A stretch of 64,000 nt of DNA from Bacteroidota bacterium (GCA_046051225.1 JBJOOR010000007.1:87894-151893), one strand, 5' to 3'. Positions 16,237 to 24,548 are shown, numbered from the stretch's first letter. Numbers and translations are program-made. Notes: generated from the sequence alone by a model not told the origin.

Positions 16237-17688
16237 TTATTGATAATTTTTAAAAATAAATTTCGGTTTCAAAAATTTCGGAATCCATTTCATGGTGTAG
16301 AATTTATGGATAATAGAATCACGAGATAAGAATATCAAGGCATCTTGTCGGGCTTTATTTACCACCCACAATGCCACAGGAAACAACACAATTAATGGCA
16401 ACCAACACCCCAACCATACTGGCATTTTCATGCCTTCGGCAAATTTTTGTCCTGTCATATTTGCTACATGAAACACTACAAAAAATACAACAGCCACCAC
16501 CAAAGGCATACCCAAGCCGCCTTTACGAATAATAGCACCCAATGCACCACCCATAATAATTAAAAGTAAACAAGCCAACGAGTATGAAAATTTATGATGA
16601 ATTTCAATATCAAATCGAGCTACATTTTCTTTTGAATAGCCTACATCTCTACTAGTTGAACTAATATTTGAACGTACATCTTGTGCTATACTGAAAGCCT
16701 TTTCGGCTATTCTTGTTCTGTTTTTTTTAGGCAAGGATGCAAAAAAATCGGCAACAGGTTTTGATGATTTTACAACCTGTAAATTAGAATCGGGCAGATA
16801 ATTAAAATTATAAAATCTACTGATGTAATTATTCAAATAAGAATAGTACTGCATGCGTTGCTTAAAAATAGTATCTACTTGGCTATTCAGTTGTTTAATA
16901 TTCATCATTTGATAATGATTCTTAAACAAATTTTCATTAGTACGTTCAAATCTAAAACCCGATAAATCAAAATACTTTTTATACTCTTTAAAATCGCTAC
17001 GTACAAACTCGGCCGACTGGGTATTTTTTGGTGGCATATCTTGATAATGCGACCCATCTTTTAAAGTAATAATTAAAAATCGCTTATCGGCTGTAGTTAC
17101 CAATTCGCCTTGCTTTGCTACAATAATATTATCATTGCCTCTGCCACTTGTATGGTCATAAATCATTACATCGTGTATCGTTTTTCCATCTGCATCTTTC
17201 TTCGAAATTTTGATTGAATAGCCTTCAATTCCATTATTAAATTTTCCTTCTTTTATGCTTAATGATGGTTTACTATTTTGAATATCATATAATAAAGTAC
17301 CCGATTTTAAATTGGCAACTGGAATAATATAATTATTAAAAATAAATGCAAACAGCGATAATGATAAACCTGCAAAAACTATAGAACGCATAAATCTGAA
17401 CAATGAAATACCCGACGATTTGAATGCTGTAAGTTCTTGAAATTCGGCAAGGTTTCCCATCGTCATGATAGAAGCCAAAAGACATGCAAGCGGCAATGAA
17501 AGCGGAACAAGACTAGCAGATGTAAAAAATAAAAGTTTGGCAATTACCAATCCATCTAAATCTTTACCTGCTAAATCATCAATATACTTCCACACAAATT
17601 GCATTAAAAACACAAAAAGTGTAATAAAAAAAGTAGCAATAAAGGGTGGTATAAACGACCGTAAAATCAGCCAGTCTATTTTTTTCAT
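16237..17688 (-). CDS. LptF/LptG family LPS export permease
   Basis: KYIDDLAGK, ELTAFKSSGISL, RKGGLG; 3+3 TM layout. Confidence 0.9.
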   Translation of the reverse strand: MKKIDWLILRSFIPPFIATFFITLFVFLMQFVWKYIDDLAGKDLDGLVIAKLLFFTSASLVPLSLPLACLLASIMTMGNLAEFQELTAFKSSGISLFRFMRSIVFAGLSLSLFAFIFNNYIIPVANLKSGTLLYDIQNSKPSLSIKEGKFNNGIEGYSIKISKKDADGKTIHDVMIYDHTSGRGNDNIIVAKQGELVTTADKRFLIITLKDGSHYQDMPPKNTQSAEFVRSDFKEYKKYFDLSGFRFERTNENLFKNHYQMMNIKQLNSQVDTIFKQRMQYYSYLNNYISRFYNFNYLPDSNLQVVKSSKPVADFFASLPKKNRTRIAEKAFSIAQDVRSNISSTSRDVGYSKENVARFDIEIHHKFSYSLACLLLIIMGGALGAIIRKGGLGMPLVVAVVFFVVFHVANMTGQKFAEGMKMPVWLGCWLPLIVLFPVALWVVNKARQDALIFLSRDSIIHKFYTMKWIPKFLKPKFIFKNYQ

Positions 17689-17791
17689 GCTGAAAATTTA
17701 GTGCTGAAAGATACTACACAATCGCCAAACTTAAAATGATTATAAAATTGAAATTGATAATAAAGTATGAATAATATTTTATCGTTTTACA

Positions 17792-17845
17792 TTCGCAATC
17801 GGAGATTGCTGTCAGCCAAAGCGTAGTCGGAAACATACGCTTGTC
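17792..17845 (+). repeat. REP copy 1 (double hairpin, second stem degenerate)
   Basis: TTCGCAATC-GGA-GATTGCTGTCAGCCAAAGCGTAGTC-GGA-AACATACGCTTGTC. Confidence 0.9.
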
Positions 17846-17871
17846 AAATACACGTTTTTATACTATGTTTG
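17841..17871 (+). promoter_or_regulatory. Bacteroidota housekeeping-type promoter at REP1 end
   Basis: TTG-N20-TATGTTTG. Confidence 0.6.
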
Positions 17872-17875
17872 TTAA

Positions 17876-18355
17876 GTGATATTAAATAAACAAACTATAG
17901 TTTCTAAATCAATTCCTGTATTGGTACTATTAAACTTAGGAATACTAATACTTATTCTATTAAAAAAACTATTTTATAGTCCATCAATTAACATTCTCGA
18001 TTTACTTCTTTACATTATTTTTAATGTAATATTTTTTTATGGTATATATTTAAATTTAATATGGGTTTTAAAAAATAAAAAGGAAAAGAAATCTATAATT
18101 TTTAATTTATGCTATTTTGGATTTCAGATTTTTACAATTAAAATTTTTGGTATAATTTACTACATTGATACAACAATTAATTTGGGAATATTCCTAATTG
18201 AGAATAATAAAATTTGTGATTTTGGATATAATGTTAGGCTAATAAACTTTGCATATAGTTTTTATTTTACTAATGATACTAATAGTCTTTTAGGGATTAA
18301 TTTTTCGGCGTTAATTTTATTTGTAATCTTAAAATGGAATTTTAATAAAAAATGA
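17876..18355 (+). CDS. Orphan multi-TM membrane protein (cargo); start uncertain (GTG)
   Basis: 159-aa hydrophobic, very AT-rich ORF; stop 1 bp before REP2. Confidence 0.6.
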   Translation: MILNKQTIVSKSIPVLVLLNLGILILILLKKLFYSPSINILDLLLYIIFNVIFFYGIYLNLIWVLKNKKEKKSIIFNLCYFGFQIFTIKIFGIIYYIDTTINLGIFLIENNKICDFGYNVRLINFAYSFYFTNDTNSLLGINFSALILFVILKWNFNKK

Positions 18356-18356
18356 A

Positions 18357-18410
18357 CCCCGACAAGCGTAGTCTCCGACTACGCTTCTGCTGAAAGCAAT
18401 CTCCGATTGC
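18357..18410 (-). repeat. REP copy 2 (inverted)
   Basis: Reverse complement GCAATCGGAGATTGCTTTCAGCAGAAGCGTAGTCGGAGACTACGCTTGTCGGGG. Confidence 0.92.
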
Positions 18411-18419
18411 TATATTTAT

Positions 18420-18965
18420 TTACACAAAATCAATTTCAATCAAACTTTCTTCGCCTGCATAATTTGAAGCACTGCTGTATAAATAATGTTCGGGCTTTGA
18501 TACAATTCCAGCTCTTACAGGATTTTGATGAATGTAATTCAGCTTTTGCTGAATAAATTCATGCGAATACAATTCTTCAGCATGATTTTCATGAGTCCAG
18601 AATTGATAATTAGAATTTCTTACATGCTTAGCAGCATTAAATTTCATGCGATGCAATAGCCAATCTCGTCTGCTTTCAACGCCACTATTTTCAATTTCCA
18701 AAATAATATTTTTGGCTGTCCATTTTTTAAAATCACGAATCAAATCTGAAAGTTTTCCGTTTTTGCTTCGCATCATCACATGAATATGATTGCTCATAAT
18801 TACATAAGCAAACAGCTCCATTCCTTTTTCTTTTCGGCAATACTTAAAGCAATCTAATACAATATCTCGGTATGATTTTCTTGAAAATGCATCTACCCAA
18901 TCTACCACTGTAAACGTCATATAATATGCTGCATCTTGGTTATTAATTTGATACGCTGCCGACAT
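18420..18965 (-). CDS. REP-associated tyrosine transposase (RAYT/TnpA-REP, Y1 HUH)
   Basis: YMTFTVVDW, HUH motif YVIMSNHIH, QFW, catalytic-Tyr motif NYIHQNPVRAG, YSSA. Confidence 0.93.
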   Translation of the reverse strand: MSAAYQINNQDAAYYMTFTVVDWVDAFSRKSYRDIVLDCFKYCRKEKGMELFAYVIMSNHIHVMMRSKNGKLSDLIRDFKKWTAKNIILEIENSGVESRRDWLLHRMKFNAAKHVRNSNYQFWTHENHAEELYSHEFIQQKLNYIHQNPVRAGIVSKPEHYLYSSASNYAGEESLIEIDFV

Positions 18966-19045
18966 AATTTTTTTTGCTAAAATAATTATCTTAGCAAAAA
19001 TCAGTTTGTGTTTTTGCTAAATAATTTTAAAGTGATGTTTTTGTT

Positions 19046-19099
19046 TTCGCAATCGGAGATTGCTGTCAGCCAAAGCGTAGTCGGAGACTACGCTTGTCG
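19046..19099 (+). repeat. REP copy 3
   Basis: TTCGCAATCGGAGATTGCTGTCAGCCAAAGCGTAGTCGGAGACTACGCTTGTCG; both stems perfect. Confidence 0.92.
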
Positions 19100-19166
19100 A
19101 ATACACTTTTATATACTACGTTTGTCGGGGTTTGTCAAATACATTTTTTATACTACGTTTGTCGGG
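19094..19166 (+). promoter_or_regulatory. Two tandem ~37-bp REP-end-derived promoter units
   Basis: TTG-N20-TACGTTTG (19094-19124) and TTTG-N19-TACGTTTG (19131-19161). Confidence 0.65.
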
Positions 19167-19210
19167 AAAGGAATTAACATCACCAAAAGATTACAAACTT
19201 CAAAAACGAA

Positions 19211-19807
19211 ATGAAAATTTTATTCATTTGCTTACTTGTATCAATAAATAATATTTGTTGTTTTGCAAATACACATTCTAAAAGCAAGAATGAATTTACA
19301 AAAAGAATAGCTAAAAGTGTTGATACATTTATGATTGATGGATATTCCCCTTACTTATTGGTAAATGTATATGATTTTGAAAAGAAAGTTTCAACAGGAA
19401 CTATAATAGTTAATGGATCAAAAGTTTTCATATTTATTATGAAAAATTATTTCGATTCTATTGGAGTAAAATTTACAACAAGAAAATTTCGAAAAACATT
19501 CAAGAAAATCATTAACAATGACATGGCGTTGAATGTACACTCTTGGCAAATAAGAGATTTGTGTTTGTATGCCAGAGCAGGTTCATTAAATGATTTACCG
19601 TTGAATTGTGGGAATATTTCTGATTCATTTTATTGTCAGTTAAAACAATCAAGCACTGCTGAAATTAGGAAGAAATATTTTAATCAAAATAAAAGGTATA
19701 CTGGAAAGCTTAGGAACGAGGATTTTAACGCCCTTGTCAAATTCTTTTTTGATAATTTTATTTTGATTAATTATTTTGAAGAACTTGGATATGACGAATT
19801 GGAATGA
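19211..19807 (+). CDS. Orphan exported protein (cargo)
   Basis: 198-aa ORF with signal-like N-terminus MKILFICLLVS. Confidence 0.65.
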   Translation: MKILFICLLVSINNICCFANTHSKSKNEFTKRIAKSVDTFMIDGYSPYLLVNVYDFEKKVSTGTIIVNGSKVFIFIMKNYFDSIGVKFTTRKFRKTFKKIINNDMALNVHSWQIRDLCLYARAGSLNDLPLNCGNISDSFYCQLKQSSTAEIRKKYFNQNKRYTGKLRNEDFNALVKFFFDNFILINYFEELGYDELE

Positions 19808-19966
19808 TTTGTGTATTGACGAGAATACATGATATGAGTAGAAGCTCAGCTGAATCTGTCGTTTCATAGCTAAAACATTACAGAAGGAATTGAATTTCGA
19901 TGATTTGAGCTTTGAAATTAGATACTAAAATTTATTTGCTTTTTATCAAAGAATGTTTTTGTAAGA

Positions 19967-20305
19967 ATAACTCCAAAACCAATTGTTTCAAAACTTTTTT
20001 CGATTGAAATAGGTTCTAAACTAATTAATTCAAACTTTAAACTTGTTGAAAAAAGTTTGAAACTTTAAGAAATAACTTTTAAATCAATTATTCTGAAATC
20101 AAAACTAATAAGTTTTAAAATAAAACTTATTGGTTTAAGAGTTATTTCTAATGAAATTAAGTTTAAAGCTTAAAGAAAAACTTTTAAAATAATAAAAATA
20201 AAAGTTGTAGCTATTGTTCCAAAACTTTTTTCAATAGAAACAAAACTTAAACCTATTGAAACAGCTTTGAAAATTATAGTTTTACTAGCAGTGGCTTTTG
20301 TTTAA
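19967..20305. repeat. Degenerate 21-bp-period tandem repeat tract
   Basis: Near-identical 28-mers at 19982 and 20213 (231 = 11x21 bp apart); heptad pattern in translation with internal stops. Confidence 0.55.
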
Positions 20306-20385
20306 CTCTTAAATTCAAATCCCATAAGCATGCAAATTATAGATTCAGAATGGTGATCAACAATCACAGGTTCACTGCTACGGGG

Positions 20386-21117
20386 TTAATTTTTTAAATA
20401 AAATTCATAATTCAGAGTATCGCACTTCTCGAAATTATATTTGGTTGAGGATAATTTCCCAATTAGAGTTAAAATATTTAATCCACGTTTTTTTGTATTT
20501 AATAGTGTTGAATGCATATTTCTACAACCAAGGTCTTTGTAAGTAAATGAATACAAGTAGTCATCATTCAAATAAGCATCAAAATCAACTGAAAACCCAA
20601 ATGGATTAGCAAATGCAATTGAAAAGGGTTTAGGCAAATCTTTTCTTTCTATTGTGTTAGAATCAAATTCTGTAATCAAATAAAAAAACTTACCGAAGCA
20701 AGATATAGACCCATTTTTGTTGTCAATGTCAAAAATAACATGCCCGTGTTTATCCTTAAAATTATACTTTTTTAAAAAACCAATACTATCAAAACTATAG
20801 TAACTGTCAATTGGTAAATCATTGTTTATAGTATTAACTGCTTCTAATTTACCATTTAAATTAAAAAAGAAAATATAGCCATTATCTTTTCCAAGATCAT
20901 TACGAGATACAATATATTCAATTGAGCTGTCATTATGATAGGCAATATGTTTTTTGCATTTTAATAAGCTACTATCTCCAAATTTTTCTATCTCCCACTT
21001 GCACAAACTATTTTCCATCGAATCATATATCTTATTACACGAACTATTTTCGTTACCATGCTTTAGCTTACATGATGCGACAATAATTAAAGGTATAAAT
21101 AAAATTAAATAACGCAT
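20386..21117 (-). CDS. Orphan lipoprotein with MORN/YwqK-like segment (cargo)
   Basis: MRYLILFIPLIIVASC lipobox; NGYIFFFNLNGKLE..SYYSFDSIG repeat-like segment. Confidence 0.65.
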   Translation of the reverse strand: MRYLILFIPLIIVASCKLKHGNENSSCNKIYDSMENSLCKWEIEKFGDSSLLKCKKHIAYHNDSSIEYIVSRNDLGKDNGYIFFFNLNGKLEAVNTINNDLPIDSYYSFDSIGFLKKYNFKDKHGHVIFDIDNKNGSISCFGKFFYLITEFDSNTIERKDLPKPFSIAFANPFGFSVDFDAYLNDDYLYSFTYKDLGCRNMHSTLLNTKKRGLNILTLIGKLSSTKYNFEKCDTLNYEFYLKN

Positions 21118-21316
21118 ATTAGTATTGAAATTTTGTCGGTTCACTAAATCCACATTTTCTATATTAGTATTACAGCAAATTATTGATGAAATTAGTATTA
21201 AGGTTAGTACTAAAATTCATTTTTTATACTCAATGCCTGTCTTTATTATGATCAATAATTCCCTTAAACCCTCCTGATTTGTGTGTATGCTTTCCACCAC
21301 CACTTGTCTTATGATT

Positions 21317-21373
21317 CCCCGACAAGCATAGTCTCCGACTACGCTTTAGCTGAAAGCAATCTCTGATTGCGAA
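21317..21373 (-). repeat. REP copy 4 (inverted)
   Basis: CCCCGACAAGCATAGTCTCCGACTACGCTTTAGCTGAAAGCAATCTCTGATTGCGAA, 1 bp from the helicase stop codon. Confidence 0.9.
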
Positions 21374-21374
21374 C

Positions 21375-24300
21375 TTATCCTATCACCACCACTTCATCCG
21401 TTTTTTCTGGTGCACGGTTCACTCTATTTGTTTTCACAAAATTACACCATTGGCATTTTTCATCATTACAACCTTGTGCAAATTCATGGTTCATTATTTT
21501 GGTGTACGAATCTTTTATTTGCGTTCTAACAATTTTCACATCATCAGGGGTAATAATAACTTTATGCCTTACAAAGGCTTTTGTTTCTTCATTTTTTTCA
21601 ATAAAATCAAATATCCCTTCTACCATTTTCCAGGTATTGAATGGATAATTATCAATCAATAATTTATAAAAAATCATTTGTCGCCAATAGTCGCCGCCAT
21701 TAGGTTGTTTATCAGTAGGTGGCGTTAAACTATCTTTAATGCTGTGTTTGGCATTGCCCGTTTTATAATCAATCACGGTGCAATTGTTTCCATCAAATTC
21801 TATTTTATCAATTTTTCCTTTTAGTGGCACACCATCAATTTCAATATTCGGAATCATTTTTTCAATGCTCACCATTTTATTAAATGTGTTGATGTAATGA
21901 TTATAATATTCGGTTAATGATTTTCTGCCCAATTCCATTCTTCTTGGAAATTGTTTTTCGGTAAAAGCTTCTTCTTGCTTATGCATACTTTTTTCAAAAT
22001 TCTTAATCACTTGTTCTAAAGGCGCAAACTCTTTTTTATCATTTATTTGCATATCCTTAAACAACATTTCTAAAGCATAATGCACCGCATTACCAAATGC
22101 CAAACTATCATTGGGTGCCGATGGCACTTGCAAAATTGTTTCATAATAAAATGCCACAGGGCAACGCAAATATTTATTTAAAGCCGATGCACTTAACGAG
22201 AAATTTTTTAATCGTTGTTCTAAAAATTCTTTCTTCAATACTTCAATATTTACGGGTGGGTTGGCTTCAAACGACCATCTAATTTGTTCCATCACCGTAG
22301 CTTCATCTACACTTGTTTTTTCGAACACACATTTATCCATTATTTCAGCAATAAATAAAGTTGCTGTTTTCCCTTTTTCTTTTGCATCCTTTACTGGATA
22401 AGAAATTTGCAAATATTTTTTAGCCCGTGTTATTGCCACATAAAATAATCTTCGGCTCGATTCTTCTGCATTTGTTTCATCATCGCCCACTAATGATTCA
22501 GGCATTTTGTAATGACCATTTTGCCCACGTTTTTTCTCCCAAAAATCGTTGGTACAACCCATCAAAAAAACATACTCAAACTCTAATCCTTTTGACGAAT
22601 GTGCTGTTATAAAATTCACACCGTTTTCTTGCGCTACTATTTTATTGATAGGCAGTTCAATGCTTTCGCCATGCATTTCATCCAGCATTGTCAAAAATTC
22701 TTTCACATGCATTCGTGGTTTTTTAGCACATTCTTCTTTAATAAAATCGAAAAAAGAATTGAGCACTTGCATATCCCAAATTCGTGTTGGCGAATTCAAA
22801 ATATATTCAACAATACCACTATCGTAAATAATATTTTCGAACAACATGGGCAAAGTAAGTTGTTGCATTTCGGTTAACCATTTATTCAAACTATTGCCCA
22901 ATTGAATTATTTTATTTTGCGATGAAAGATTCAAAGTGCTTATTTCTAAAGCATTATCTAATACCAAGCGCCATTGTTTTTTTTCTGTTTTTGGTTTTTG
23001 CGCTACATGAAAACTAAGCAATGCAATATCAACAGGATTGATTTGCAAAGCAGGATAATGCATCAAATGAAATAAAATTTCTTCGCCGCTAAATGCTTTG
23101 CTGGTTTCCTTTTGCAGATATTCTAACACATTTACAAAATAATTTACCAACGGAATTTTTAATAAATCTTCTCGTTTTTTTACGTTGTATGGAATGCGTT
23201 TTTTTTCTAATAATTTAATGATGTTGGCTGCTTGTTTATGTTGCGAATACAACACTGCCACTTCCGATAAATTTTTTCCTTCGTTGTGCAATTTTTCTAA
23301 TTGCATTACAATATCAGCCTCTTCATGAAAACTATTGTAATATTCTACAATCTTTGGTGCTGGCGATTCTTCGGCTATTATTTTAGGATGAGATGCTACC
23401 AAATTTTTGTCCAACACTAATCCTTCTTTTTTTATAAGATGAATTAATCGTTGTTTATTTTTATCAATAGTTGCTTTGGATGCATCTAATATTTTTTGTG
23501 TGCTGCGGTAATTATTGGTAAGTACAATGGCTTGAATATTATCTTCAAAACCTTCATAAAAACTTACAATATTATCTAATCGTGCACCTTGAAATTCGTA
23601 GATGCTTTGGTCGTCATCGCCTACAATAAATACGTTTGCATCTTGCCCCCAATAACTAATTAGCAATTCTAAAATTTCTTTCTGTGAGCCGCTTGTATCC
23701 TGAAATTCATCTACTAACACATACTGAAATCGTTCTTGATATTCCAACAACAACAATTCATTTTCTTTAAATGCTTTTATCACCCACAATATCATATCAT
23801 CGTAATCATATCTTGCTCGGGCAACCATTTTAGCATCAAACTTTTCAAACAATGCAGCCGCATCTTTTAGCAAATTTAATTTATCAACTTCTACCTGAAT
23901 TTTATCCGTTCTTACATCACCTTTTTTAAATTCGCCAGTAGCACGTTTGCAAATGTATTCATCCTTCAAAGGCAATTCGGCAATGTGTTTGTCAATGGCT
24001 TCTATAATTTTTTCAGCTGTCCAATCTTCTTTTTTCATCATCGAAAAAAGATTTTTTAATCGTTTAGCTTCATAATAAATATCACCTTTTAATTTGCGTA
24101 AGCTATGTCCTTCGGGCAATTCATCTAATAATTGATGATAAATTTCAGCCGTTTCTAAATCGCTTACAGGTTCGCTTTCTCGTTTCAAAAAAAACTGTGG
24201 ATGATTTTGAATCACATCATTACAAAACGCATGAAAAGTATGAATATTCACTTTGTGTGCCACAGGCCCAATGAAATCCATCAAGCGTTTACGCATGGCA

Positions 24301-24548
24301 ATTGCGCCTGCATCGGTATAAGTCAAACACAAAATATTATGCGGTTTTGCATCCACACCGCTTGCTAAAATATTGGCAATTCGAGCAGCAATAATTTGTG
24401 TTTTACCAGTGCCGGGCCCAGCTACAACCAGCACTGGACCTTCGATGGTATCAACGGCTAATTTTTGTTCTGTATTTAATTGTTGATACGATTGTTGAAA
24501 TTTATTATCGTATTCGGATTTTATTTTTTTTATATCAGATGAGTTCAT
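21375..24548 (-). CDS. UvrD/PcrA-family helicase with C-terminal PD-(D/E)XK nuclease
   Basis: AGPGTGKT, VDEFQD, NNYRS, HSSKGLEF, RLFYVAITRA; GKIDKI..IDYKTG; Cys RCP...C..CQWC. Confidence 0.92.
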   Translation of the reverse strand: MNSSDIKKIKSEYDNKFQQSYQQLNTEQKLAVDTIEGPVLVVAGPGTGKTQIIAARIANILASGVDAKPHNILCLTYTDAGAIAMRKRLMDFIGPVAHKVNIHTFHAFCNDVIQNHPQFFLKRESEPVSDLETAEIYHQLLDELPEGHSLRKLKGDIYYEAKRLKNLFSMMKKEDWTAEKIIEAIDKHIAELPLKDEYICKRATGEFKKGDVRTDKIQVEVDKLNLLKDAAALFEKFDAKMVARARYDYDDMILWVIKAFKENELLLLEYQERFQYVLVDEFQDTSGSQKEILELLISYWGQDANVFIVGDDDQSIYEFQGARLDNIVSFYEGFEDNIQAIVLTNNYRSTQKILDASKATIDKNKQRLIHLIKKEGLVLDKNLVASHPKIIAEESPAPKIVEYYNSFHEEADIVMQLEKLHNEGKNLSEVAVLYSQHKQAANIIKLLEKKRIPYNVKKREDLLKIPLVNYFVNVLEYLQKETSKAFSGEEILFHLMHYPALQINPVDIALLSFHVAQKPKTEKKQWRLVLDNALEISTLNLSSQNKIIQLGNSLNKWLTEMQQLTLPMLFENIIYDSGIVEYILNSPTRIWDMQVLNSFFDFIKEECAKKPRMHVKEFLTMLDEMHGESIELPINKIVAQENGVNFITAHSSKGLEFEYVFLMGCTNDFWEKKRGQNGHYKMPESLVGDDETNAEESSRRLFYVAITRAKKYLQISYPVKDAKEKGKTATLFIAEIMDKCVFEKTSVDEATVMEQIRWSFEANPPVNIEVLKKEFLEQRLKNFSLSASALNKYLRCPVAFYYETILQVPSAPNDSLAFGNAVHYALEMLFKDMQINDKKEFAPLEQVIKNFEKSMHKQEEAFTEKQFPRRMELGRKSLTEYYNHYINTFNKMVSIEKMIPNIEIDGVPLKGKIDKIEFDGNNCTVIDYKTGNAKHSIKDSLTPPTDKQPNGGDYWRQMIFYKLLIDNYPFNTWKMVEGIFDFIEKNEETKAFVRHKVIITPDDVKIVRTQIKDSYTKIMNHEFAQGCNDEKCQWCNFVKTNRVNRAPEKTDEVVVIG

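Follow-up and report, generated by a model that had tools for sequence, protein, structure and literature searches.

A REPtron in a Bacteroidota genome with cognate REP repeats at the edges of a slot of orphan genes

A stretch of 64,000 nucleotides from a Bacteroidota bacterium (GCA_046051225.1, JBJOOR010000007.1:87894-151893; called the window below, with positions counted from its first letter) carries between the lptFG gene and a helicase gene an islet (17792-21373) with a REP-associated tyrosine transposase gene (RAYT), four copies of a repetitive extragenic palindrome (REP1 to REP4) and three orphan open reading frames (ORFs A, B and C). The RAYT gene with REP2 and REP3 at its two sides is a REPtron, and this identity is well supported. 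Beyond an ordinary REPtron core, the locus is unusual in that 4 of the 13 copies of the REP family are found here, with the extra REPs bracketing whole genes. In the nearest relative, other genes occupy the slot beside REP4, and the REPs that can be read against that genome all face the same way. In the reading that we favour, with a probability of about 0.45, the REPs delimit slots of accessory genes whose content would turn over when DNA is broken and joined at the TTGTC end of the repeat or next to it, either by the RAYT or in homologous exchange. It is plausible, though unproven, that the REP ends take part in gene turnover.

The order of the elements between lptFG and the helicase gene is REP1(+), ORF A, REP2(-), RAYT, REP3(+), ORF B, a non-coding tract, ORF C and REP4(-). 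An earlier interpretation of the same DNA, made without database searches (the sequence-only reading), had drawn this layout of REPs, RAYT, ORFs and helicase gap, and every element was found where it had been placed.

The RAYT scored 97.8 bits with the NCBIfam model NF047646 REP_Tyr_transpos (cut-off 80) and 28.7 bits with Pfam Y1_Tnp (cut-off 23), and it stayed below the cut-off of the IS200 model (20.4 bits vs 55). The RAYT identity proposed earlier is confirmed by these matches, and the REPs are its cognate family. The protein is a domesticated single-strand DNA transposase. TnpAREP subclass 2.6 of Quentin et al. 2018 (PMC6006769), which equals Group 5 of Bertels et al. 2017, is described there by the motifs NH[LIV]H and YIH[QN]NP and a spacing of about 82 residues. 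Counted on the translation, the spacing from NHIH to YIHQNP is 84 residues, and the predicted length, motifs, spacing and host phylum fit TnpAY1 subclass 2.6. The W motif of the subclass reads WQ, and WT is found at the candidate tryptophans of this RAYT and of its closest homologue. A search of PDB sequences with the RAYT gave 0 matches at E up to 1.

The source genome (G000) has 3.3 Mb, 33% GC and 24 contigs, the window being part of contig C7 (C7:87894-151893). The RAYT clade is single-copy in it, and the two other Y1_Tnp matches are IS200-like and lie elsewhere in the genome. This single copy is flanked by inverted cognate hairpin repeats that are also present at other places. RAYT homologues were found in 30 of the 41 genomes searched, G000 included. 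The closest one, with 71% identity, comes from another genus (genome G010), and no genome of the same genus has a homologue above 49%.

Concerning the REPs, folding as single-stranded DNA (ssDNA) gave a common plan of ~55 nt with hairpin 1 (6-7 bp), a ~9-nt spacer and hairpin 2 (9-10 bp), the loops having 3-5 nt, followed by TTGTC. In the short form (REP2, REP4 and the copy C12a) GGGG comes directly after TTGTC, and in the long form (REP1, REP3 and most other copies) a ~30-nt tail that repeats the right arm of hairpin 2 precedes the GGGG. The repeat search found the inverted pairs 17795-17834/18371-18410, with 536 nt between the arms, and 19046-19099/21320-21373, with 2220 nt between them, at 90-93% complementarity, whereas as direct pairs REP1 and REP3 are 92% alike and REP2 and REP4 93% alike. 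Over the 64 kb of the window, the hairpin-1 motif has 4 occurrences vs 0.05 expected, and 0 of 100 shuffles had as many. The hairpin-2 motif was found at three sites of the window (five strand-wise matches) vs 0.00 expected, the REP1 copy having more than 3 mismatches.

A profile built from the copies (nhmmer) detected 13 REPs at E below 1e-11 in the 3.3 Mb, plus 2 degenerate copies, so this family is very small. Four of the 13 lie in these 3.6 kb and nine on 6 other contigs, as a doublet on C12, two copies on C6 and 5 singletons; the two on C6 are direct repeats 1.5 kb apart around a 309-aa ORF. On a crude ORF map, 12 of the 13 lie outside ORFs of at least 80 aa, the exception being the C15 copy, which overlaps an ORF of 118 aa, perhaps a spurious one. 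These repeats are therefore short extragenic sequences with two hairpins each. They differ from typical REPs in their low copy number and in lacking a GT[AG]G foot, since the GTAG sits within the stem of hairpin 2. Low-copy flanking 16-mers (12-14 occurrences) have been reported for RAYT Groups 1 and 4 (Bertels 2017, PMC5581495).

The 3' tails of the REPs are iterated in tandem at some places. In REP3 a 37-nt unit is repeated 1.9 times (window 19094-19166, Tandem Repeats Finder, TRF), and at the RAYT locus of G010 (L005:2279-2340) a 15-nt unit made of the hairpin-2 right arm and the end motif appears ~4 times. These tandem tails could be scars of repeated cutting and joining, or they could come from replication slippage. 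It should also be mentioned that a second, unrelated family of short hairpin repeats is found beside REP remnants in the nearest relative (L017:776-902) and has several copies in G000 (C6:17066-17165, C6:99608-99702, C6:57784-57829).

The tight REP doublets give an indication about the natural unit of the family. In these doublets the hairpin-1 ends are adjacent and the TTGTC ends point outward, which is the opposite of the pairing of REP1 with REP2 and of REP3 with REP4. The doublet of G000 (C12:93456-93589) has a 25-nt spacer and folds as one long hairpin (z -7.6), and four doublets in another genome, G081, have conserved 45-nt spacers and fold in the same manner (z -9.2). REP2-RAYT-REP3 is such a doublet with a gene inside, that is, a classical REPtron of the Bacteroidota type (subclass 2.6). 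The RAYT of G010 is flanked by its own two-hairpin REPs with no other gene inside, within an intergenic space of 1.7 kb, where the nearest REP at either side has the same orientation. On a metagenome contig (L096), a RAYT with 49% identity carries its own 54-nt two-hairpin inverted repeats, without cargo. Since the doublets and the homologous RAYT loci are cargo-free inside, the cargo of the locus studied here lies between REP units and not inside one. The repeated unit of the family appears, from the arrangement of the copies, to be the doublet with outward TTGTC ends. The sequence-only reading had taken the inward-facing pairs as the unit that captures genes, and this is not supported; moreover, RAYT homologues whose REPs enclose only short spacers, which that reading had named as evidence against itself, are what G010 and L096 show.

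In the available text of PMC6006769 and PMC8266576, REPtrons are described as a gene bordered by REPs, without genes in between. The titles and abstracts searched on RAYTs and REPINs, TnpAREP and REPtrons, and REP breakpoints contained nothing on genes bracketed by REPs, and the subclass 2.6 tables of PMC6006769 may hold similar REPs.

The comparison with the nearest relative, G004 (a metagenome-assembled genome, MAG, 87% complete, in about 300 contigs, with ~92-94% DNA identity to G000), revealed how the REPs are placed with regard to conserved DNA. The equivalent of REP4 is at the same position after the helicase stop codon in G004, and the alignment with G000 ends directly after TTGTC. What follows in G004 is a long-form tail, three ORFs unrelated to those of G000 (115, 250 and 180 aa) and then a partial REP facing back. 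Hence, the REP4 slot has the same boundary and different genes in the two genomes, and this is the one comparison in which a variation of cassette content at a fixed site between relatives was seen. The sequence-only reading had named a conserved REP and RAYT with variable cargo in relatives as support; REP4 is indeed kept with other genes after its TTGTC, and the cognate RAYT was not found there. The alignment is likewise interrupted at the TTGTC end of a second REP common to both genomes, which follows a conserved gene at G000 C1:312440. At the left side, the DNA match between G004 and G000 stops at window 17713, 79 nt ahead of REP1. The claim that the REPs mark the edges of lineage-specific DNA is upheld at the helicase side, where REP4 ends at 21373 and the helicase ORF including its stop codon begins at 21375.

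Ten REPs could be read for polarity, all by hand: eight in G000 (REP1, REP4, C1:312402, C2:261740, C10:30582, C15:64256, C6:20647 and C1:223732, those at C1:312402 and C10:30582 being degenerate) and two in G004 (L067:2346 and L068:1927). All 10 have collinear homology at 0-255 nt from the hairpin-1 side and lose it on the TTGTC side. The TTGTC side of most of them adjoins DNA that is unmatched in the other genome, and in the remaining ones DNA that is not collinear. The count leaves out the ambiguous C18 copy, and six others are uninformative: C6a and C6b1 are inside islets present only in G000, the C12 pair is a doublet, and REP2 and REP3 flank the RAYT.

The C12 doublet is part of a block of 810 nt (G000 C12:92850-93659, L052:7351-8159) together with ORF191, an orphan of 191 aa with a hydrophobic N-terminus. 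The collinear contig of G004 has 95 unrelated nt in its place, between the same two conserved genes, so that ORF191 and its REPs were probably gained or lost together. ORF A and ORF191, which are unrelated orphans, each stop exactly 1 nt short of a CCCCGAC end. G004 joins directly two blocks, A and B, that in G000 (C10 and C2) have a REP at each edge and are at least 290 kb apart. Because the DNA between the facing REPs of G000 measures at least 90 kb for blocks A/B and for blocks P/R (C1), these cases are rearrangements and not insertions.

Regarding the cargo, the segments within the two inward pairs (536 and 2220 nt) are AT-rich orphan DNA, as the sequence-only reading had stated, with 22-28% GC vs 31-36% in the flanks; just 2.1% of the 800-nt windows of the genome are below 27%. 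An open frame of 160 codons arising by chance in such DNA is very unlikely according to arithmetic from the composition, and for this reason ORFs A, B and C are taken as real orphan genes. None of them had a credible family match in Pfam, NCBIfam, PADLOC or PHROGs; a RasGAP match of ORF B was rejected as sub-threshold (17.6 bits vs 28.3). ORFs B and C had homologues in 0 of 80 relatives and only the self match in a search of 5.8 billion proteins, which covered these two ORFs. For ORF C, an Atlas search gave only a lead to hypothetical proteins of Bacteroidota, some with MORN_2 (score 0.91). As no homologue of the cargo was found in anything searched, capture from a donor cannot be traced. The signal peptide and lipobox of ORFs B and C were read by eye from the translations. 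The tract between ORFs B and C had been described as a repeat tract, and this was partly right: it contains imperfect inverted repeats, and TRF detected no tandem array in this 576-nt non-coding sequence, which is unique in the genome. Compared with shuffled sequences, both of its strands form much more stable folds (z -5.2 and -4.7), and no Rfam family matched it at E below 0.89. Rfam and tRNA scans of the whole islet between lptFG and the helicase gene had no match either. The features are listed in Table 1.

Table 1. Features of the islet and of the two backbone genes beside it (positions in the window; z, fold z-score as ssDNA).
Feature	Position	Strand	Description	Basis
LptF/LptG permease gene, left backbone flank	16237..17688	-	97% identical in G004	Pfam LptF_LptG, E 9.4e-76
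REP1, long form	17792..17876	+	Hairpin 1, hairpin 2 with degraded loop, TTGTC, tail including TATGTTTG at 17864	nhmmer E 4e-18; z -1.0 (not significant)
ORF A	17876..18355	+	159 aa, GTG start, no internal Met, very hydrophobic, orphan; GC 22%; stop codon 1 nt from outer end of REP2	Translation
REP2, short form	18357..18410	-	CCCCGAC outer end toward ORF A, hairpin 1 toward RAYT	z -5.7
RAYT / TnpAREP	18420..18965	-	181 aa, intact; NHIH at residues 59-62, YIHQNP from Y144	Pfam, NCBIfam, motifs
REP3, long form	19046..19166	+	Core 19046-19099 and tandem 37-nt tail (1.9 copies); TTTG-N20-TACGTTTG at 19131-19161	z -2.5 (with tail)
ORF B	19211..19807	+	198 aa, hydrophobic N-terminus, putative exported protein, orphan	
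Non-coding tract	19810..20385	.	576 nt, AT-rich, imperfect inverted repeats (I5, I6, I12, I24)	Repeat search, folding
ORF C	20386..21118	-	~244 aa from ATG at 21118, N-terminus ending in Cys, putative lipoprotein, orphan	
REP4, short form	21317..21373	-	Hairpin-1 end next to helicase stop (1 nt), outer end facing ORF C; same place in G004	z -2.9
UvrD-type helicase gene with PD-(D/E)XK nuclease domain, right backbone flank	21375..24548	-	97% identical in G004	Profile search

The long-form tails could also have a role in expression. A perfect TAnnTTTG box, which corresponds to the -7 box of sigma-A in Bacteroidota (PMC9723704), faces the cargo in the long-form tails of REP1, REP3 and the REP4 of G004 (window 17864, 19117 and 19154 for the G000 boxes). 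The full pattern TTTG-N20-TACGTTTG of REP3 is located 49 nt upstream of the ATG of ORF B, and the box in the REP4 tail of G004 lies ~27 nt ahead of the likely ATG of the first cargo ORF there. Only 4 nt separate the end of the box at 17864 from the GTG of ORF A, and a transcript from such a promoter would be leaderless. This box has a background of 0.8 per kb and strand, the window shows no enrichment of the full promoter pattern (15 found vs 9.8 expected), and the other REP subfamily is without the box. Furthermore, an outward promoter would be antisense at ORF A and at ORF191 of C12, because both ORFs run into the REP end. Any promoter role of the REP tails is something we infer from these motifs.

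REP pairs that face inward and enclose 0.5-4 kb of accessory genes are also present in two other genomes, G004 and G081. In G004 one such pair surrounds a block of 3.8 kb that is present only in this genome (C233:6491-10393; L031:1499-3033, L067:1-2393) and encodes DUF6527, ThiF, Multi_ubiq, an XRE-type HTH protein and Peptidase_M78. This gene set is of a kind known from ubiquitin-like anti-phage systems. The Multi_ubiq gene was found in only one more of 61 genomes, in a copy of 65% identity that has no REP nearby. In G081 (C86, L042:1894-7768) there are four REP doublets of ~145 nt, and the gaps between them, of 4.0, 0.58 and 0.67 kb, hold small genes; each short gap has one small ORF on the minus strand (88 or 95 aa), and the contig ends inside the last doublet. 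The relatives of G081 are too divergent for synteny tests.

Metagenome contigs with this locus were also considered. The contigs of runs X1 and X3, possibly the source sample, are interrupted within every REP, which is expected for repeats. In X4, from another sample and study, one contig of 766 nt (depth 36.6, no mismatch) joins 19045 to 17792, with a crossover within the 40 nt common to REP3 and REP1, before 17832 and not at TTGTC. The junction is the one that a circle or a tandem of REP1-ORF A-REP2-RAYT could give, though an assembly path across the repeat would explain it equally well, so it is a lead only. The parts of X4 that are uncovered and a low-depth joint of 17310 to 22749 in X3 (side 20) were not used as evidence.

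With respect to the backbone, lptFG and the helicase gene are on separate contigs in 16 of 16 relatives searched. Upstream of lptFG, G004 has ordinary genes that are found on other contigs of G000, with no REP there. The gene order around the helicase gene is unstable across the family: in G010 (C413, L026:74-4450) it adjoins a phosphoglycerate kinase gene, and in G000 a PAP2 gene, lptFG and the islet intervene. A metagenome scan anchored on the C-terminus of the helicase returned 35 loci, and it gives no strain-level comparison because the best match is 57% identical; none of these 35 loci has the REP family of G000. In 3 of the 35 (L096:4691-5389, L095 and L120:1274-1744, from at least two organisms) a RAYT homologue lies 0.35-3.3 kb downstream of a distant helicase orthologue (35-48% identity), which may be chance. 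A plasmid search with the locus produced only a weak match to the RAYT, in the 'transposase' genes of two Bernardetia plasmids.

Several known systems resemble this locus in part. With REPtrons of RAYT subclass 2.6 it shares the single-copy Y1 HUH gene of ~180 aa, inverted hairpin repeats that are also found elsewhere, the Bacteroidota host and, according to the available text of PMC6006769, atypical REPs without a GT[AG]G foot. It differs from them in the REPs that bracket genes (0.5 and 2.2 kb), in the 13 copies and in the constant polarity of the readable ones. The elements of the IS200/IS605 family (IS608, ISDra2) also have a Y1 HUH enzyme, subterminal hairpins and single-strand cleavage at short sites beside the hairpins, and REP1 and REP3 are direct repeats on one strand like LE and RE. 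However, there is no second copy of the unit in G000, only matches of REP length elsewhere, and the enzyme gene is a single-copy one of RAYT type. ISCR/IS91 elements and Helitrons have HUH enzymes associated with the acquisition of DNA next to one end of the element, and these enzymes are large transposases of the rolling-circle Rep type. The RAYT studied here is instead a Y1 protein of 181 aa, and no rolling-circle end structure was seen. As in integrons, folded single-strand palindromes are placed among small, variable and often orphan genes whose content differs between close relatives, but the enzyme is an HUH Y1 nuclease and not a tyrosine recombinase, there are two sites per segment, the orientation of the genes is mixed, and an attI/Pc module is absent. 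No integrase was found among the 8 ORFs scanned between 14307 and 24548. The REP ends of G010 and G081 (GTTAAGC...GCTTAAC) are similar in their letters to attC core sites, and a reading of them as attC sites was rejected, since the order is inverse and the G000 ends differ.

The idea of a RAYT diversifying the genes around it was put forward once, for the prochlorosin genes of marine picocyanobacteria (TnpAREP-procA, 10.1101/2020.03.09.984088), where the integron analogy is also named. Both proposals come from genome structure alone. In that case the RAYT is of subclass 2.1, without REPs, and the genes belong to one family and are not unrelated orphans. A later note of its authors states that they found no strong evidence for or against causality (10.1101/2020.03.09.984088).

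In the favoured reading, the single-copy, intact RAYT nested in the REP2/REP3 doublet sits in an accessory-gene slot between lptFG and the helicase gene, with REP1 and REP4 at the slot edges. Three lineage-specific orphan genes, for a small membrane protein, a putative exported protein and a putative lipoprotein, fill the space between REP units. The hairpin-1 side of the readable REPs is turned toward the conserved backbone and the TTGTC(GGGG) side toward DNA that is absent there in the nearest relative. At the TTGTC end or adjacent to it, DNA might be broken and joined by RAYT cleavage and strand transfer on ssDNA, or the REPs might serve as portable homology for homologous exchange, and as an outcome the DNA on the TTGTC side would be replaced, deleted or rearranged. 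In vitro, the enzyme of E. coli cuts REP ssDNA and joins it again, with cleavage sites beside the hairpin (PMC6006769, PMC8266576), which makes turnover at the TTGTC end chemically reasonable. The anatomy, the family membership, the number of copies, the orphan nature of the cargo, the polarity and the other content in G004 are observations, and any catalytic part of the RAYT in the turnover is something we infer.

Several observations weigh against this reading, and many of them are what would be expected if an ordinary REPtron and decaying REPIN copies merely happened to lie in fast-evolving islets, the REPs having no causal role and the polarity being a small-sample artefact of a fragmented MAG. 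Synteny between G000 and G004 is commonly broken at places free of REPs, for example upstream of lptFG in G004 and at the C15/C18 junction on G004:C153. What is repeated in G081 is the doublet together with its 45-nt spacer, which fits ordinary REPIN insertion between resident genes, and the homologous REPtrons of G010 and L096 have no cargo. The asymmetry in GC content is weak, 9 of 15 copies (Wilcoxon p 0.035) and 6 of 11 singletons (p 0.12) having the lower value on the outer side of the REP. Although G004 has the REPs, no cognate RAYT was found in it, the best match being 49% identical. Moreover, G004 is so fragmented that many alignments stop at contig ends, and the polarity was counted with no control of the breakpoint rate in REP-free intergenic regions. 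Several calls were made by distance (for C15, 255 nt vs 1131 nt), and the C10 call rests on the hairpin-1 side, its outer side not having been searched in G004. Finally, the X4 contig, the sole possible junction of excision or duplication, is not at TTGTC and may be an assembly path. Nevertheless, one polarity in 10 of 10 readable REPs has a probability of ~0.002 (two-sided) under random orientation, with the reservation that the rule was framed after seeing the first cases. In addition, homology ends within a few nt of TTGTC at both REPs common to G000 and G004, and two unrelated orphan ORFs end exactly 1 nt before a CCCCGAC end. Coincidence is therefore considered somewhat unlikely, although it deserves to be kept in mind.

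It could also be that each segment from a REP(+) to a REP(-) is a non-autonomous transposon, the REPs being terminal inverted repeats with hairpin 1 at the tips and the RAYT acting in trans. This would directly explain the polarity and the inward pairs around 0.5-4 kb in three genomes, and REP1 resembles REP3 (long) and REP2 resembles REP4 (short) as matched left and right ends should. The direct joining of blocks A and B in G004, with a REP at both edges in G000, would point in the same direction, if the two REPs were not at least 290 kb apart, a distance that indicates rearrangement and not insertion. Nor was any bracketed segment found twice in G000, no homologue of ORF B or ORF C turned up in the searches, and the Multi_ubiq gene of G004 has its single further occurrence among 61 genomes with no REP nearby. 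The homology of G004 ends 79 nt outside REP1 and not at its tip, and a conserved 45-nt spacer in G081 would be unexpected for independent insertions. Such a transposon is thus an improbable explanation. The model of the sequence-only reading sees an integron-like platform here, with foreign DNA inserted by the RAYT between REP ends and expressed from the REPs. It agrees with the different genes of G000 and G004 in the REP4 slot, which diverge from the REP end, with the perfect TAnnTTTG boxes in tails facing the cargo, and with the tandem repeats of the tails if these are cut-and-join scars and not slippage. It is weakened by the presence of two REPs per segment instead of one site per cassette, by the mixed orientation of the cargo (A and B plus, C minus), by related REPtrons without cargo and by the lack of a tyrosine recombinase in the 8 ORFs scanned; no donor or homologue of the cargo was found. 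The supposed promoter would be antisense to two orphan ORFs, its box is common, its full pattern is unenriched, and the other subfamily does not have it. A cargo circle without hairpins would, judging from IS200/IS605 chemistry (PMC8266576), be no known Y1 substrate. The locus is not an integron-like ordered capture system, and we regard that model as very unlikely. A bolder version of our own reading, with the TTGTC(GGGG) ends as active recombination sites of the RAYT, at which the DNA between two facing ends would be swapped, lost or acquired, and the long-form tail as an outward sigma-A promoter, also seems improbable to us. The REPtron and its satellite REPs would in this version be an HUH-driven cassette platform for accessory genes in Chitinophagales, with single-strand hairpin sites and a function analogous to that of an integron.

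The host function of RAYTs is stated to be an open question (PMC6006769, PMC8266576). If the REP ends do delimit and renew slots of accessory genes, a domesticated HUH transposase would gain a host-level role in gene turnover, and this would represent a second, chemically unrelated route to cassette-like variability. The modest form of this reading predicts a low-copy REP family with a fixed polarity toward lineage-specific DNA. If the polarity should fail in complete genomes, the locus would be an ordinary Bacteroidota REPtron in a variable islet.

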